Source: Nanopusillaceae archaeon (GTDB lineage: Archaea > Nanobdellota > Nanobdellia > Nanobdellales > Nanobdellaceae). From it: a stretch of 32,000 bases of DNA. Shown here piece after piece: positions 9,718 through 30,056 of this stretch. The position numbers and the translations under genes were made by a program. The notes beneath the pieces were generated by a model. It was given only the letters and a program-made list of their open reading frames with translations, ran no database searches and was not told the origin of the DNA. The DNA lies in assembly GCA_038735675.1 (NCBI GenBank), contig JAVYNJ010000002.1, positions 1-32,000 of the forward strand, in the 5' to 3' direction. Within the stretch, counting starts at the first letter, position 1, and the number at the start of each line of letters is the position of its first letter.

Positions 9718-9718
9718 T

Positions 9719-9808
9719 TGGGCCCGGGGGGAATTGAACCCCCGACCTCCGGCTTTCTTAGGAGCCCGACCATATAAGGCCGGCGCTCCACCACTGAGCT
9801 ACGGGCCC
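9719..9808 (-). tRNA. tRNA-Ile, anticodon UAU, with 18-nt intron (9755-9772) at the canonical 37/38 position
   Basis: Reverse complement is GGGCCCG-TA-GCTC-AGTGGTG-GAGC-G-CCGGC-CTTATA[TGGTCGGGCTCCTAAGAA]A-GCCGG-AGGTC-GGGGG-TTCAATT-CCCCC-CGGGCCC-A. C32-A35 pair with intron UAAG to give a 4-bp helix flanked by 3-nt bulges UA|U and AA|A (bulge-helix-bulge). No encoded CCA. Confidence 0.9.
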
Positions 9809-9901
9809 ATTAGAAATATTAATAAAATATAATCTTTTTTAATTTCACCTTCACTTTTACCAAGGATCTTATTTTATAAAAATTTAAATAAAATATGAAA
9901 A

Positions 9902-15895: not shown

Positions 15896-16564
15896 TTATT
15901 TTTGCAACAAAAACATCATATGCTCTTTATGGAAAGGTTCTAATCTAACTTTATTAATTATCTTTATTCCATATTCTGATATTTCTTTGCTAACTTCATC
16001 AAATATTACTTTAGAATCTTTTCTAACATCTATTGATTTAGCTTTGACAGCATAAAATATGTATCCTTTGCTTTTTAAAAACAAATCCATATTATTGATA
16101 AGTATTTTAGTTTGATGTGGTTGTGCTATATCTTGATATATAACATCTACTTTGGAAACTAAGTGAACATAATTGTAGGGGTTTGATGCATCAGATAATA
16201 TCGGAATTATATTTCTTCTTTCCTTCACTATTTTCATAAGTTCCATTAAAATTCTAGCAGAAACATCTATACCATATATTACTCCTTTCCATCCAATAAT
16301 ATCAGAAATGTGTGATGCTGTTGTTCCAGAAGCTATACCTAAATATAGTATCTTATCTCCTTCTCTTATTGGAATCTCTCCTATGTTTTTCTTAATTGCT
16401 GCCGCTAATTTGGATCTATTAGCTATCCATTCTCTATATTCTTCTCCCTTAAATTCTACTAATCTTTCTCCATATACTACTTGCCCCCTTACTAGATTTT
16501 TAGTATATAATTTTCCTTTCTTATCAATATATATTCTTGGATTTTCTTTTAATGCTTTCATCAT
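15896..16564 (-). CDS. flpA: Fibrillarin (rRNA/tRNA 2'-O-methyltransferase)
   Basis: YREWIANRSKLAAAI, SAM motif ILYLGIASGTTASHISDI, VIYGIDVSAR, NIIPILSDA. 222 aa. Paired with Nop5 through an ATGA overlap. Confidence 0.95.
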   Translation of the reverse strand: MMKALKENPRIYIDKKGKLYTKNLVRGQVVYGERLVEFKGEEYREWIANRSKLAAAIKKNIGEIPIREGDKILYLGIASGTTASHISDIIGWKGVIYGIDVSARILMELMKIVKERRNIIPILSDASNPYNYVHLVSKVDVIYQDIAQPHQTKILINNMDLFLKSKGYIFYAVKAKSIDVRKDSKVIFDEVSKEISEYGIKIINKVRLEPFHKEHMMFLLQK

Positions 16565-17562
16565 TATTTTTTTTCTGATTTTAATTCGTTAAATCTGTCC
16601 TCTAATTCTCTTAACAACTCTTCATATATTAATTTACCTGAATTAAAGGCATCCATTCTTGCTGCGATAGCTATTTTGGCTGCCAAAGTTCTCGCCATTG
16701 CACCCCTAAGCTTTTTCGGTAACCTTTGTATATAAGGATGATTAAATATAACACCGTGTTTTGGTGGCGGTGTTTTCTTTGTTAAATGTTTAAAAAGTGC
16801 TTTTTCAGCACCTAAAACTTGAATTGTTGATGCTGGCAACATTGCTAATTCTTTCAGTCCACCCGCAATAGCTATTAGTCTAGCACCTATAGTCGGAGTT
16901 GCTATTTTTGATAAGTTAGGACATATTTCTTCCATTAAATTTTCAATATAGTTCTTTAAAGAATCTCTTAACTTATAAAGTCTTATTATTTCTTCTCCTA
17001 TTTTATTTAATTGCTCTATATCCTTTGCTTCAAATTTTCCACCCATAGTTTTTTCTATTTGGTACTCTTTCATTAATTCTTCTCTCTTTTTATTAAAAAC
17101 GATCTTTAAAAATTTTTCATGATCTTCAATCATTTGAGATAATTCTGGAAAATATAAATTGTATATTTCTCTAAATCTTTCTACAATAAGATTAATTGTC
17201 TTATTTAGATCATCTAAAAGCATTACTGTCTGTATTATGATGTTATCTCTAGTAATAGATTTAGAAATGACATCCTTAGTCAAATTATATACTTTTTCTT
17301 GATTTAACTCTTTTTCTTCTTCAGAAATAATTTCTATTGCTTTTTTTAATTTATTTTTATCTTTCTCAACTTTATAATTTTCTATTTCTTGACCTAAGAA
17401 TACGTAATCTTCCTTTATGTATTCTTTAATTCTTTCTGGCAATTTTCCAAAAGAAATTTCTTTTAATTCTTCTTCGTTTAAATCCAATTTTATAAATTGT
17501 TCCTTTTCTATTTTTTCATTAAAAATATATATTCCGTCGTGTCTTATAATAACATACTTCAT
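16564..17562 (-). CDS. nop5: Nop5 (Nop56/58) C/D box sRNP core protein
   Basis: Nop domain IAGGLKELAMLPASTIQVLGAEKALFKHL...PPKHGVIFNHPYI...RGAMARTLAAKIAIAARMD. Coiled-coil middle region. 332 aa. Confidence 0.95.
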   Translation of the reverse strand: MKYVIIRHDGIYIFNEKIEKEQFIKLDLNEEELKEISFGKLPERIKEYIKEDYVFLGQEIENYKVEKDKNKLKKAIEIISEEEKELNQEKVYNLTKDVISKSITRDNIIIQTVMLLDDLNKTINLIVERFREIYNLYFPELSQMIEDHEKFLKIVFNKKREELMKEYQIEKTMGGKFEAKDIEQLNKIGEEIIRLYKLRDSLKNYIENLMEEICPNLSKIATPTIGARLIAIAGGLKELAMLPASTIQVLGAEKALFKHLTKKTPPPKHGVIFNHPYIQRLPKKLRGAMARTLAAKIAIAARMDAFNSGKLIYEELLRELEDRFNELKSEKK

Positions 17563-26528: not shown

Positions 26529-27119
26529 ATGTTTATTGTAATCGAAGGAATTGATGGCTGTGGAAAAACAAGAGTTATCGAGGAATTAAAAAAGAGATTA
26601 GAAGAAAAAGGAAATAAAGTATTTTTAACAAAAGAACCTTTTGATAATAGAATTAAAGAATTAATAAAATCTATAATAAAAGAAGAACACCCAAAGAATA
26701 AATATTTTGGCCTCTTTTTAGCATGTTTATTTGCTGCAGATAGATATTTACATCAAATTGAAATAGAAGATAAACTAAATCAAAATTTTATTATTATATC
26801 TGATAGATACTATTATTCTTCATTTTCCTATCAATCCAATTATGAGAACTTTGATTTGGAATGGTTAAAAAATTTGCATAAATACATAAGAAAGCCAGAT
26901 ATAGTCTTTATATTGGATGTTCCAGTTAAAATAGCTCTTGAAAGACTTAAAGAACGTTCTGAAAAAAATTCTTATGAAACAGAAGATTTCCTAGAAAAAG
27001 TTAGAAAAAAATATTTGGAACTTCCGAAAATATTAAAAGATGAAAAAATATATATAATAGATAATTCTGGAAAAATAGAAGATACTGTAAATAAAATACT
27101 AAGTATTATTAGCATTTAA
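26529..27119 (+). CDS. tmk: Thymidylate kinase
   Basis: P-loop FIVIEGIDGCGKT, the DRY motif (SDRYYYSS) and a lid region. 196 aa. Confidence 0.88.
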   Translation: MFIVIEGIDGCGKTRVIEELKKRLEEKGNKVFLTKEPFDNRIKELIKSIIKEEHPKNKYFGLFLACLFAADRYLHQIEIEDKLNQNFIIISDRYYYSSFSYQSNYENFDLEWLKNLHKYIRKPDIVFILDVPVKIALERLKERSEKNSYETEDFLEKVRKKYLELPKILKDEKIYIIDNSGKIEDTVNKILSIISI

Positions 27120-28856
27120 ATCTTTTATTACTTTATATATTTCTTCTCCTATTTTTTTCTCATCAACATTACTACAAATATTTTTTATTATTTCTTTTGC
27201 CTCATCTAAAATTTTATCTTTTATACTAAAATCTTTATATGTTGCAATTTTTTCCAAAGAATCTTCCATTTTTCTAGTGAAATCTACATCTAAAATTTCT
27301 GGAAAATATTTTTCAAAAATATCCAATATTTTTTCTCCTAATTTAGTAATTCTTATAGATCTTCCATCAATATATTTTCTATTATAGAGTGTTACTATAA
27401 TTTCTGCTCTAGTAGATTTTGTACCTAAATTCTCCTCTTCCATTTTCTTAATTAAACTAGCTTGGTTATATCTTGGAGGTGGAGAAGTTTTTCTTTGTCT
27501 TATGTATTTCTTAAGAACGTCATAATATTCACCTTCTCTGAAATCAATATCTAAAAATCTATCTTTCAAAAAATCTAAATATAAAATAATCCATCCCTTT
27601 TCCAAACATTTTTCATATTCAAAATAAAAATTTTCTTCAAAAACGATTTTATTTTTTTTGATAATTGCAGGGTCCATAAATGTAGCAAAAAATCTTCTAA
27701 CAACTAAATCATATATTAAAAATTCACCCTTATTTAAATCATAAGGTATCTCACCTGTAGGATATATTGCTGGATGTATATCTTCTTTTTTCCCATTGTT
27801 TGGCTTTAAAATACGCTTACTTTTAAGCAAATCATAATAAAAAGAATATTTTTTAAATCTAGCTAAATTTTCCATTATTTTTCTAAAATTTATAGTATCT
27901 GGTAATATTTCTGAAGAGGTCCTCGGGTATGAAATATATCCTTTCTCATAAAGTTTTTGGAGAATACTTAATGTTTGTTTCGGAGTTATTTTATATATTC
28001 TATATGCATCTATTTGTATATTAGTTAAATTATAAGGATGTGGGGGTTTTTCTTCATATTTTTCAGAGATAACTTTCAAAACCATTATTTTATTTTTTAT
28101 TTTACTCTTTATTCTTTCCGCTTCTTCTCTACTTTTAATTTTTCCGCCATATATCAATTTTAATATTTCTTTTTCCTTTTTTATATCTAAATAGATTAAA
28201 TAGTAAATTTCTGGTTTGAATTCTTTTATTTCTTTCTCTTTTTCAAATATCAATTTCAATGTTGGCCCTTGAACTCTTCCAATACTTAAAACATAATCCT
28301 TAGTATATTTTCTTAAAGATCTTGTTAATATTCTTGATAAATTAATACCATAAAGCCAATCTAATATATGTCTAGTTTCTCCAGCTATTGCTAATCCATA
28401 ATCAATGCTTTCTCTAATATTTCTGAATGCATTAGATATATCTTGCTTAGTTATGGCAGAAAAAATCATTCTCTTAGCATTTTTCTTTCCTAAAGAAAAT
28501 CTAATAATATTATAACCTATTAATTCCCCCTCTATATCGTAGTCTGTAGCTAAAATAATATTATTTTCGTCAGAAAATTTTCTAAACATATCTATATAGG
28601 CTTTTTTTATAAATATTTTATCCTCAAAATATGAAGGAACCCATTTATAGTCAAAAGTGGGATATTTATATGTTTTATCAAGATCCGAAATTGTATATAA
28701 ATGTCCAATTGATGGAACTACATAAAAGTTTACTCCATTAAGATTAAAATAGTAATAATAAACACCTTCTCTAAATTTAATTTTTTTAAAACTAGAATTA
28801 GATAAAAACAAAGCAATATTTCTAGCTACAGATGGTTTTTCAGCAATTATTAGCAT
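27099..28856 (-). CDS. topA: DNA topoisomerase IA (Topo III-like core, no C-terminal Zn-finger domain)
   Basis: Toprim MLIIAEKPSVARNIA and ATDYDIEGE. Active-site Tyr context GYISYPRTSSE. 585 aa. The 3' end overlaps convergent tmk by 21 nt. Confidence 0.85.
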   Translation of the reverse strand: MLIIAEKPSVARNIALFLSNSSFKKIKFREGVYYYYFNLNGVNFYVVPSIGHLYTISDLDKTYKYPTFDYKWVPSYFEDKIFIKKAYIDMFRKFSDENNIILATDYDIEGELIGYNIIRFSLGKKNAKRMIFSAITKQDISNAFRNIRESIDYGLAIAGETRHILDWLYGINLSRILTRSLRKYTKDYVLSIGRVQGPTLKLIFEKEKEIKEFKPEIYYLIYLDIKKEKEILKLIYGGKIKSREEAERIKSKIKNKIMVLKVISEKYEEKPPHPYNLTNIQIDAYRIYKITPKQTLSILQKLYEKGYISYPRTSSEILPDTINFRKIMENLARFKKYSFYYDLLKSKRILKPNNGKKEDIHPAIYPTGEIPYDLNKGEFLIYDLVVRRFFATFMDPAIIKKNKIVFEENFYFEYEKCLEKGWIILYLDFLKDRFLDIDFREGEYYDVLKKYIRQRKTSPPPRYNQASLIKKMEEENLGTKSTRAEIIVTLYNRKYIDGRSIRITKLGEKILDIFEKYFPEILDVDFTRKMEDSLEKIATYKDFSIKDKILDEAKEIIKNICSNVDEKKIGEEIYKVIKDLNANNT

Positions 28857-28887
28857 AAAATTCTAATTTTAATCAAATTTTATAAAA

Positions 28888-28971
28888 TGCGGGGGCGGGG
28901 ATTTGAACCCCGGACGGATCTAATCCATCGGGACCTAAACCCGACCCCTTTGACCTCTCGGGCACCCCCGC
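28888..28971 (-). tRNA. tRNA-Leu, anticodon UAG (class II, long variable arm)
   Basis: Reverse complement is GCGGGGG-TG-CCC-GAGAGGTCAAA-GGG-G-TCGGG-TTTAGGT-CCCGA-T(GGAT-TAG-ATCC)GTC-CGGGG-TTCAAAT-CCCCG-CCCCCGC-A. No encoded CCA. Confidence 0.92.
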
Positions 28972-28975
28972 AAAA

Positions 28976-29028
28976 TCAGAATGGGAACTTTTCTTCATTT
29001 ATCCTGAACCCCGAATCTTCATCATCTT
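28976..29028 (-). ncRNA. Candidate C/D box sRNA, ending 4 nt upstream of tRNA-Leu
   Basis: Minus strand: aag-ATGATGA(C)-agattcggggttc-AGGA(D', degenerate)-taa-ATGAAGA(C', 1 mismatch)-aaagttcccatt(12 nt)-CTGA(D)-tttt-[tRNA-Leu +1]. The C-to-D span is 50 nt. Guide segments are GC-richer than the flanks. Confidence 0.6.
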
Positions 29029-29060
29029 ATATATAATTTTTCTTTTGGAAAAATATTTTT

Positions 29061-30056
29061 ATGATAACTTATATCGATCTTTTAAAATGGTTTATTGAAA
29101 ATCAAGAAAAAATAAATAACTCAATCGTTAGAGATGTTTTTTCAATAAAAAACGGTTTAGTTTTAGAAATATACAAAAAGGATTTAGAAAAAAGATATCT
29201 TTATATAATTCCGGGTAAAATAATTTTTTTATCTGACAAAAAATTAGAAAAAATAAAAAATAAATTTTCGGATAAATTAAAAAAAGATTTGATAAATAAA
29301 AAAATTCAAATATCTTTAGAAGATGATAAAATTTTAATAATAGAATCTGAAAACATCAAAATATATTGTGAATTAATTCCTAATGGATTAATAGTTGTAA
29401 CTGATATGGAAAATAAAATATTATATGCTACAAAATACAAGGATTTCGGATATAGAAAGATAAAATCAAATGAAAAATATCTTAAACCCCCAAAAAATTT
29501 TATTGTTGCAATAGAAATTTCTAAATTTAAGGAAAAGTTAGAAAAAACAAATAAAAAAGATATTGTTAGATTTTTAGCTATAGATTTAGGATTATCTGGA
29601 AAGTATGCCGAATATATACTAGAAAATCTAAATATTGAAAAATCAAAAAGTCCAAAAGATCTTTCCGATACAGAAATTGTCAATATTTTTAACCTTTACA
29701 AAAACTTATTTGAAAAAAAAGAAGTACTTTATGAAAATCAATGGTATTCTGATGTAAATTCTCTTTTTGAAAAGATATATTTTGATGAAGAAATAGAAAA
29801 TAAAAAGAAAATTATTGAAAAAAAGAAAGAAGAAATTAAAAAAATACTTGAAGATCAAAAACAAAAACTTTCAGATTTTGAAGAAGAAATAAAAAATTTA
29901 ATGGATATAGCCAACTTAATAAAGGAAAATTATTGGATATTTCAAGATTATAACATCGAAAATATAGAAAAATTTCTTAAATCTAAAAATTTAGATTTCT
30001 CAGTCGAAAAAAAAGATGGTAAAATATTTATAAAAATTAAAAACATAAATTCTTAA
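29061..30056 (+). CDS. NFACT-N/HhH/coiled-coil protein (N-terminal half of an Rqc2/NEMF/FbpA-like ribosome quality-control factor)
   Basis: IDLLKWFIENQEKINNSIVRDVFSIKNGLVLEIYKK...YLYIIPGKIIFLSD...KIYCELIPNGLIVVTDMENKILYATKYKDFGYRKIKSNEKYLKPP follows the NFACT-N pattern. HhH-like LAIDLGLSGKYAEYILENLNI, then a K/E coiled coil. No NFACT-R/DUF814 part; 331 aa. Confidence 0.6.
   Translation: MITYIDLLKWFIENQEKINNSIVRDVFSIKNGLVLEIYKKDLEKRYLYIIPGKIIFLSDKKLEKIKNKFSDKLKKDLINKKIQISLEDDKILIIESENIKIYCELIPNGLIVVTDMENKILYATKYKDFGYRKIKSNEKYLKPPKNFIVAIEISKFKEKLEKTNKKDIVRFLAIDLGLSGKYAEYILENLNIEKSKSPKDLSDTEIVNIFNLYKNLFEKKEVLYENQWYSDVNSLFEKIYFDEEIENKKKIIEKKKEEIKKILEDQKQKLSDFEEEIKNLMDIANLIKENYWIFQDYNIENIEKFLKSKNLDFSVEKKDGKIFIKIKNINS

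Follow-up and report, generated by a model that had tools for sequence, protein, structure and literature searches.

A box C/D guide RNA gene abutting the 5' end of tRNA-Leu(UAG) in a Nanoclepta-type archaeon

Several arrangements are known in which a box C/D guide RNA is encoded next to, or within, a tRNA gene. In Nanoarchaeum equitans, sRNA8 lies directly downstream of tRNA-Val and sRNA3 downstream of tRNA-Gly, and RNase Z has been proposed to form the sRNA 5' end (PMC3491384). The same organism, which is without RNase P, has sRNA14 preceding tRNA-Gly, but there the two are separated by a 32-nt spacer that contains a T stretch together with the box A belonging to the tRNA (PMC3491384). Pyrobaculum sR44 is linked to elongator tRNA-Met and lies at most 8 nt from the tRNA 3' end (Lui et al. 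2018, PMC6009581). The tRNA also comes first in plant tRNA-Gly/snoR43 genes (Kruszka et al. 2003, as cited in PMC3491384). In Euryarchaeota, the intron of pre-tRNA-Trp contains a C/D sRNA that the splicing endonuclease sets free and whose target is its own tRNA (Clouet d'Orval et al. 2001, as cited in PMC3491384). In a limited literature search we found no description of the sRNA-first order; the archaeal and plant dicistrons that we found have the tRNA first and involve RNase Z.

Here we describe a locus in a 483-kb assembly (28 contigs, 25% G+C, 83% complete). The window, meaning the whole 32,000-nt stretch that was analysed, belongs to contig C2, and the sequencing runs matching the locus stretch are all DNA runs from hot-spring metagenomes, with no RNA run among them. 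The host is a Nanoclepta-type member of the Nanobdellaceae, in the same taxonomic order as N. equitans (taxonomy as in PMC13718433). On the minus strand a box C/D sRNA (28976..29028) is followed after 4 nt by tRNA-Leu(UAG) (28888..28971). As in the N. equitans dicistrons (Randau 2012), a C/D sRNA abuts a tRNA and a tRNA-processing enzyme would free the sRNA. There, however, the tRNA comes first, whereas here the sRNA does, so that with a 4-nt spacer the cut must fall at the tRNA 5' end. The classical dicistron, in which the tRNA leads and RNase Z makes the sRNA 5' end, is thus reversed at the tRNA-Leu locus. An earlier interpretation of this DNA, made from its letters alone (hereafter the sequence-only reading), had named N. 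equitans as a precedent. The existence of tRNA-C/D sRNA units in that organism bears this out in part, but their tRNA-first order and RNase Z cut are the opposite of what is found here.

The other linkages can be compared in the same way. Pyrobaculum sR44 and, in the account available through PMC3491384, plant snoR43 are guides co-transcribed with a tRNA, as we propose here, in linkages that are lineage-specific and evolutionarily fluid; in both the guide sits at the 3' side of the tRNA, whereas here it sits at the 5' side. The sRNA of the pre-tRNA-Trp intron, as that source presents it, is physically part of a tRNA precursor and is freed by tRNA maturation, which is again what we propose for the present locus, but it targets its own tRNA, whereas the guides described below are matched to 16S rRNA and have no good tRNA match. 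We propose that the locus encodes a functional C/D guide RNA of about 53 nt that is co-transcribed as the 5' leader of tRNA-Leu and separated from it by an RNase P cut at +1, and we put the probability of this reading at roughly 0.65. Such a gene arrangement, in which a guide RNA forms the tRNA 5' leader and RNase P is the releasing enzyme, is likely new.

Anatomy of the locus and identity of the sRNA

Read 5' to 3' on the minus strand, the sRNA opens with the C box AUGAUGA (29019..29025), which is identical in Ca. Nanoclepta minutus Ncl-1 (G001, of the same GTDB genus) and in two further relatives, G006 and G018. It continues with a 13-nt D' guide (29006..29018; AGATTCGGGGTTC as DNA, AGAUUCGGGGUUC as RNA) and the D' box AGGA (29002..29005), which is degenerate in its first two bases with GA kept. 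A 3-nt loop, UAA, leads to the C' box AUGAAGA (28992..28998; GUGAAGA in N. minutus), the 12-nt D guide (28980..28991; AAAGTTCCCATT as DNA, AAAGUUCCCAUU as RNA) and the D box CUGA (28976..28979). The spacer UUUU (28972..28975) joins the D box to G+1 of the tRNA at 28971 and brings the sRNA of about 53 nt to 57 nt. The tRNA was called both by ARAGORN and by the Rfam tRNA model (55.2 bits) and is the sole UAG isoacceptor gene in the assembly. The sequence-only reading had placed boxes, guides, spacer and the +1 G of tRNA-Leu(UAG) correctly to the base, and had rightly called the guides GC-richer than their surroundings (44% G+C in a genome of 25% G+C).

Downstream of the tRNA lies topA, encoding topoisomerase I (27099..28856, minus strand; Pfam Topoisom_bac 370 bits plus Toprim), and T4 tracts occur 3' of tRNA-Leu itself as well. 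On the other side, a divergent 331-aa ORF without a Pfam match (29061..30056, plus strand) starts 35 nt from the C box. The interval between the two coding regions (window positions 28856-29061) is extremely packed: about 200 bp accommodate the sRNA and the tRNA, apparent promoters for the sRNA and for the divergent ORF, and a T-rich element that resembles both a terminator of the unit and the TATA box of a near-leaderless topA. The locus thereby illustrates how far gene packing goes in 0.5-Mb nanoarchaeal genomes.

Because box-like words are frequent in A/T-rich DNA, we tested the whole architecture rather than single boxes. A strict pattern (C box, 10-14 nt, NNGA, 2-8 nt, NTGANGA, 10-13 nt, CTGA) matched five times genome-wide and not once in any of 20 Markov-shuffled genomes. 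A looser pattern gave about eight distinct candidates genome-wide, all with canonical 12-nt guides. At the present locus we find an RUGAUGA-type C box near the 5' end, a CUGA D box near the 3' end, internal D' and C' boxes with a short loop between them, and a Watson-Crick pair at N+5 for both guides; boxes and guide-target pairing are kept in relatives, the full unit being present in two genomes only.

Seven archaeal sR families from Rfam align to 28974-29029 at full model length, all below threshold, the best being sR5 with 21.1 bits and E 0.013 against a gathering threshold of 40. Neither sR5, sR11, sR33 nor any other named sR family reached its gathering threshold, which, at the level of these alignments, shows shared architecture and not family membership. 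The sRNA has the C/D'/C'/D order, the guides of 12-13 nt, the 3-nt loop and the length of about 53 nt of archaeal box C/D methylation guides, among them the sR5, sR11 and sR33 families, together with a 10-bp rRNA pairing, a Watson-Crick pair at N+5 and the encoded partners L7Ae, Nop5 and fibrillarin. It differs from them in not being a sequence member of any Rfam sR family, in its degenerate D' box and in lacking a terminator of its own, since it runs into the tRNA. Fibrillarin (15902-16531; PF01269, 282.6 bits) and Nop5 (match at 16588-17220; PF01798, 209.9 bits) are encoded together on the minus strand at 15902..17220, so that Pfam confirms both partner proteins that had been noticed in the window, and L7Ae is encoded on another contig (C5). 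Overall, we regard this RNA as a true box C/D sRNA with two guides that joins an established class, and the assignment is well supported.

Pairing of the guides with 16S rRNA

The sequence-only reading had suggested looking in rRNAs and tRNAs for complements of at least 10 nt. The D guide provides one, and rRNA sites were found for both guides; the tRNA half of the suggestion failed, as nothing above chance was seen among the genome's tRNAs, the linked tRNA-Leu included. The 16S and 23S rRNA genes lie on contig C6. With 16S 929-938 (E. coli 958-967, helix 31) the D guide makes an uninterrupted run of 10 Watson-Crick pairs, the first of which lies beside the D box. This pairing was reached by 0/300 and 1/500 shuffled guides in two shuffle runs. 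Position N+5 falls on G933 (E. coli 962), in a G-C pair. In N. minutus, where the helix-31 site reads AAUGGGACCUUA in the rRNA and the guide AAAGGUUCCAUC, pair 8 has changed from A-U to C-G by an A to C change in the rRNA and a U to G change in the guide, which is compensatory. Pair 6 has become G-U by a one-sided change that keeps the pair, pair 11 is gained and pair 1 is lost. The D-guide pairing of N. minutus taken alone is not significant (66/500 shuffles reach it), and the compensatory change is a single one, observed between the two genomes that carry the unit.

For the D' guide, pairing is found with 16S 1176-1185 (E. coli 1206-1215), consisting of nine Watson-Crick pairs and one G-U pair with a C-G pair at N+5. 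The same 16S site is paired by 10 Watson-Crick pairs in N. minutus, a result reached by 5/500 shuffles, and the site is invariant between the two species. Since the D' box is degenerate (AGGA), and since relatives have UUGA or CUGA after a 12-nt guide, the register of this guide is uncertain by 1 nt, which leaves C1178 or C1179 (E. coli 1208 or 1209) as its target. From these pairings we predict that the sRNA, assembled with L7Ae, Nop5 and fibrillarin, would 2'-O-methylate two sites in the head of 16S rRNA, namely G933 (E. coli 962, helix 31) by the D guide and C1178 or C1179 by the D' guide.

Two matches in 23S rRNA were set aside. A perfect 10-nt match of the D guide at 23S 117-126 was dropped because the N. 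minutus guide is unpaired there with the rRNA site unchanged, and we treat it as probably coincidental or secondary. The best-scoring D' match, at 23S 1653-1665 (12 pairs, two of them G-U), was equalled by 30-40/300 shuffles and is lost in N. minutus. The published sRNA table of N. equitans contains no sRNA with matching guides, and a search for a helix-31 guide in other genera found none, the pattern matching a different sRNA family (AUUUUACCCAUU) instead.

Conservation and origin of the fusion

In N. minutus, a species that grows in co-culture, the sRNA unit is likewise followed by a 4-nt spacer and a tRNA-Leu, there with the anticodon GAG. The C box, the C' core and the D box are kept, the D' guide is identical over its first 10 nt, and 3/12 positions of the D guide have changed. 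The N. minutus spacer is GAGA, so the UUUU tract is not a conserved terminator. In both species topA lies 3' of the tRNA, with 65% protein identity.

Outside the genus, conservation is confined to one half of the sRNA. Conservation across the order covers the D' guide over its first 10 nt: the sRNA 5' half (C box plus AGAUUCGGGG) occurs in G018 and G006 and, in close variants, in G007, G011 and G012. In all of these the D' box is UUGA or CUGA after a 12-nt guide, the D guides differ, and no tRNA lies 3' of the sRNA homolog. Orthologs of the 331-aa ORF are divergent and adjacent to the sRNA homolog in G007, G011, G012 and G006. Judged by this distribution, the sRNA 5' half is older than the fusion, and the adjoining divergent ORF is also ancestral. 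No sRNA precedes a tRNA-Leu gene among those from 28 loci of other relatives. Because the 5' half occurs in relatives without a downstream tRNA, the fusion of sRNA, tRNA-Leu and topA arose in the Nanoclepta lineage. A metagenome scan for a C'-guide-D segment joined to the start of tRNA-Leu returned one unrelated match, which has no C box. Collectively, conservation, rRNA targets and partner proteins back the original proposal that a C/D sRNA abuts the 5' end of this tRNA-Leu.

The tRNA behind the sRNA is Leu(UAG) here and Leu(GAG) in N. minutus (L004:1585-1669), with orthologous flanks. In each genome the other tRNA-Leu isoacceptor is found elsewhere, 96-99% identical. These observations point to gene conversion or exchange among paralogous tRNA-Leu genes, or to a shift of anticodon.

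A further case is found in another genus of the family (G004; locus L155 on its contig C41, minus strand, around 1462-1540), where a canonical C/D sRNA lies 3 nt 5' of tRNA-Arg(CCU). Its layout is AUGACGA, 12 nt, CUGA, UAU, AUGAUGA, 12 nt, CUGA, and by this layout it is a second, independent sRNA-first fusion. When the search for the sRNA-first order was made stricter and covered tRNAs with all-G/C acceptor stems in 20 genomes of the order, the two Nanoclepta cases were the only ones returned.

The classical order also occurs in the present genome. At G000:C7:3247-3374 and G000:C15:10255-10382, a C/D sRNA lies 2-3 nt downstream of tRNA-Asn(GUU) and is composed of AUGAUGA, an 11-nt guide, GGGA, a loop, AUGAUUA, an 11-nt guide and CUGA; its guide was not found in 19 relatives. 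The contig pairs C7/C15 (tRNA-Asn, sRNA, tRNA-Ile) and C5/C10 (tRNA-Gln, sRNA) are near-identical with few substitutions, and these duplicates could be co-binned strain variants or recent duplications.

Transcription of the unit and formation of the tRNA 5' end

We built a promoter weight matrix from the 36 other tRNA genes of this genome and scored each gene leave-one-out. At 25% G+C the matrix is weak, the best score lying within 2 nt of the canonical place in 10/36 tRNAs only, and we used it as a comparison and not as a promoter finder; strictly fixed-distance promoters for all tRNAs of this genome are weakly supported, and we do not claim them. The 36 tRNAs have a weak but positioned TTWTAWAA-like A/T signal at -33..-26, and their median score at this fixed place is at the 96th percentile of random genome windows. 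The score of tRNA-Leu(UAG) at the fixed place, -7.0, is lower than that of any of the 36 and corresponds to the 36th percentile of random windows, and the N. minutus tRNA-Leu copy scores -13.5 on the full window. By this comparison tRNA-Leu(UAG) appears to have no tRNA-type promoter at the usual distance, leaving an internal promoter unsupported. Among the 36 tRNA genes, position -1 is T in 27 and position -2 is A in 23. At the only N. equitans tRNA-Leu locus examined (L010) the box is about 6 nt closer to the tRNA, which fits short tRNA leaders in the present genome.

Three other elements score well. P1, a candidate BRE/TATA element with the core AAAAATATTTTT (29049..29068, minus strand; score 3.1-4.0, 97-98th percentile), implies a start at 29029-29031, 4-6 nt before the C box. 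N. minutus retains the core AATATTTTT, with an implied start 1-4 nt before its C box, and we regard P1 as a candidate promoter-like element for the sRNA-tRNA unit. P2, a TATA-like element (TTATATATAA, 29027..29040) that abuts the C box, was scored on both strands. On the plus strand it scores 4.2 with an implied start at 29060, next to the ATG of the divergent ORF at 29061, and in this genome it is probably the promoter of that ORF. On the minus strand it scores 6.0 (99.8th percentile) with an implied start at about 29003, and it could start transcripts inside the sRNA. A T-rich element (TTTTATAAAATTT, 28875..28887, minus strand; score 3.0-4.6) lies directly 3' of the tRNA with an implied start at 28852-28854, the topA ATG being at 28856, and is likely, from its position, to be both the terminator of the unit and the topA TATA box.

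With these elements the pathway that we propose can be stated as follows. Transcription would start a few nucleotides before the C box and continue across both RNA genes as far as the T-rich stretch behind the tRNA. RNase P would then cut at the tRNA +1, an event that would make the tRNA 5' end and free the sRNA with a short 3' tail, and the assembled proteins would shield the sRNA from trimming.

The enzyme that this pathway calls for is encoded. The sequence-only reading had asked how the tRNA 5' end is formed and had named RNase P genes as the thing to look for; the RNase P RNA and two of its proteins were found in this genome, unlike in N. equitans. The RNase P RNA (G000:C6:17396-17630, 235 nt) lies near the 23S rRNA gene and matches the full model span with 81.9 bits and E 8e-24, just below the 84-bit Rfam threshold, as in most genomes of the family. 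Rpp29 (67.2 bits) and Rpp21 (65.1 bits) are present, RNase Z is encoded as well (284 bits), and searches of this 83%-complete assembly for Pop5 and Rpp30 gave no match. Two order-level relatives gave no match to RNase P RNA; one of them is a 98%-complete single contig of 0.5 Mb, for which such a result fits the published case of N. equitans (PMC3491384).

A different transcription pattern would have two overlapping units, in which the upstream promoter drives the sRNA, whose transcript stops at UUUU, while the tRNA is made mainly from P2, with a start near the D' box. The tRNA leader would then be about 32 nt long, comprising the C' box, the D guide and the D box, and would still be removed by RNase P. 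The high minus-strand score of P2, with its implied start near 29003, is what this pattern predicts, and the N. minutus homolog of P2 scores 6.1, even though the ortholog of the divergent ORF lies some 780 nt off in that species. In the present genome some transcripts could end at the UUUU spacer, and T4 tracts follow the tRNA too. However, P2 in the present genome fits the divergent ORF, which is the ancestral neighbour of the sRNA; N. minutus has GAGA and no U tract after the D box; and TATA-like strings are common at 25% G+C. We consider two overlapping units unlikely. Both this pattern and the single transcript that we favor give the tRNA a leader of at least about 30 nt, so that RNase P is needed in either case.

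The sequence-only reading had also raised an internal promoter, gataaatg, which does occupy -32..-25 of tRNA-Leu. From it a leaderless or nearly leaderless tRNA could be made in the manner of N. equitans, with the sRNA as a separate, terminated transcript and no endonuclease involved. The A/U-rich D'-C' loop does lie about 27-31 nt before the tRNA +1, where tRNA TATA boxes lie, and G004 has GATATATG at the equivalent place. When the 8-nt core alone is considered, gataaatg scores -3.5, and 4/36 tRNAs are lower. Over the full fixed position, however, tRNA-Leu(UAG) has the lowest score of 37 tRNAs and does no better than random genomic windows, and the G at -32 is found in 0/36 tRNAs. N. minutus does not share this box; its counterpart there, TGAATGGT, has a core score of -5.6 and is poor on the full window too. 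Leaderless tRNA genes of the N. equitans type have a promoter at the fixed place and no RNase P; here no promoter-like score is seen at that place, and RNase P RNA, Rpp29 and Rpp21 are retained. An internal promoter of this kind is thus very unlikely.

The idea that the boxes arose by chance, or are decayed remnants, in a normal tRNA leader and that no functional guide RNA is made is scarcely credible: the degenerate D' box, the lack of an Rfam family at its threshold and the unremarkable predicted fold of the 146-nt precursor (z = -0.72) would agree with it, but the pattern counts in real and shuffled genomes, boxes kept between species while guides vary, significant rRNA complementarity that includes a compensatory change, and a 5' half kept across the order all speak against it. 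C/D sRNAs are not expected to form stable folds.

Where the sRNA comes first and the spacer measures 3-4 nt, the tRNA 5' end has to be formed by a cut, and RNase P would thereby take part in the biogenesis of guide RNAs. The locus also sets up a contrast within one order, between N. equitans, which is without RNase P and has a promoter-bearing spacer between sRNA14 and tRNA-Gly, and Nanoclepta, which has RNase P and no room for a promoter. Tentatively, and at somewhat less than even odds, we suggest that functional guide RNAs of the Nanobdellaceae repeatedly became 5' leaders of essential tRNAs (Leu in Nanoclepta, Arg in another genus), that RNase P forms the 3' ends of these sRNAs, and that such fusions, together with close tRNA-tRNA pairs, could help to keep RNase P indispensable in this family, its sister N. 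equitans having lost it.

Two smaller observations concern other RNA genes of this genome. At G000:C4:1930-2028, another C'-guide-CUGA segment and a UGAUGA lie no more than about 25 nt 5' of an sRNA (C4:1980-2028), a layout that resembles C/D sRNA genes in a tandem pair or a cluster. At 9718-9809 on the minus strand of the window, a 92-nt tRNA to which ARAGORN assigned no anticodon matches the Rfam tRNA model with 66.8 bits and is probably an intron-containing tRNA.
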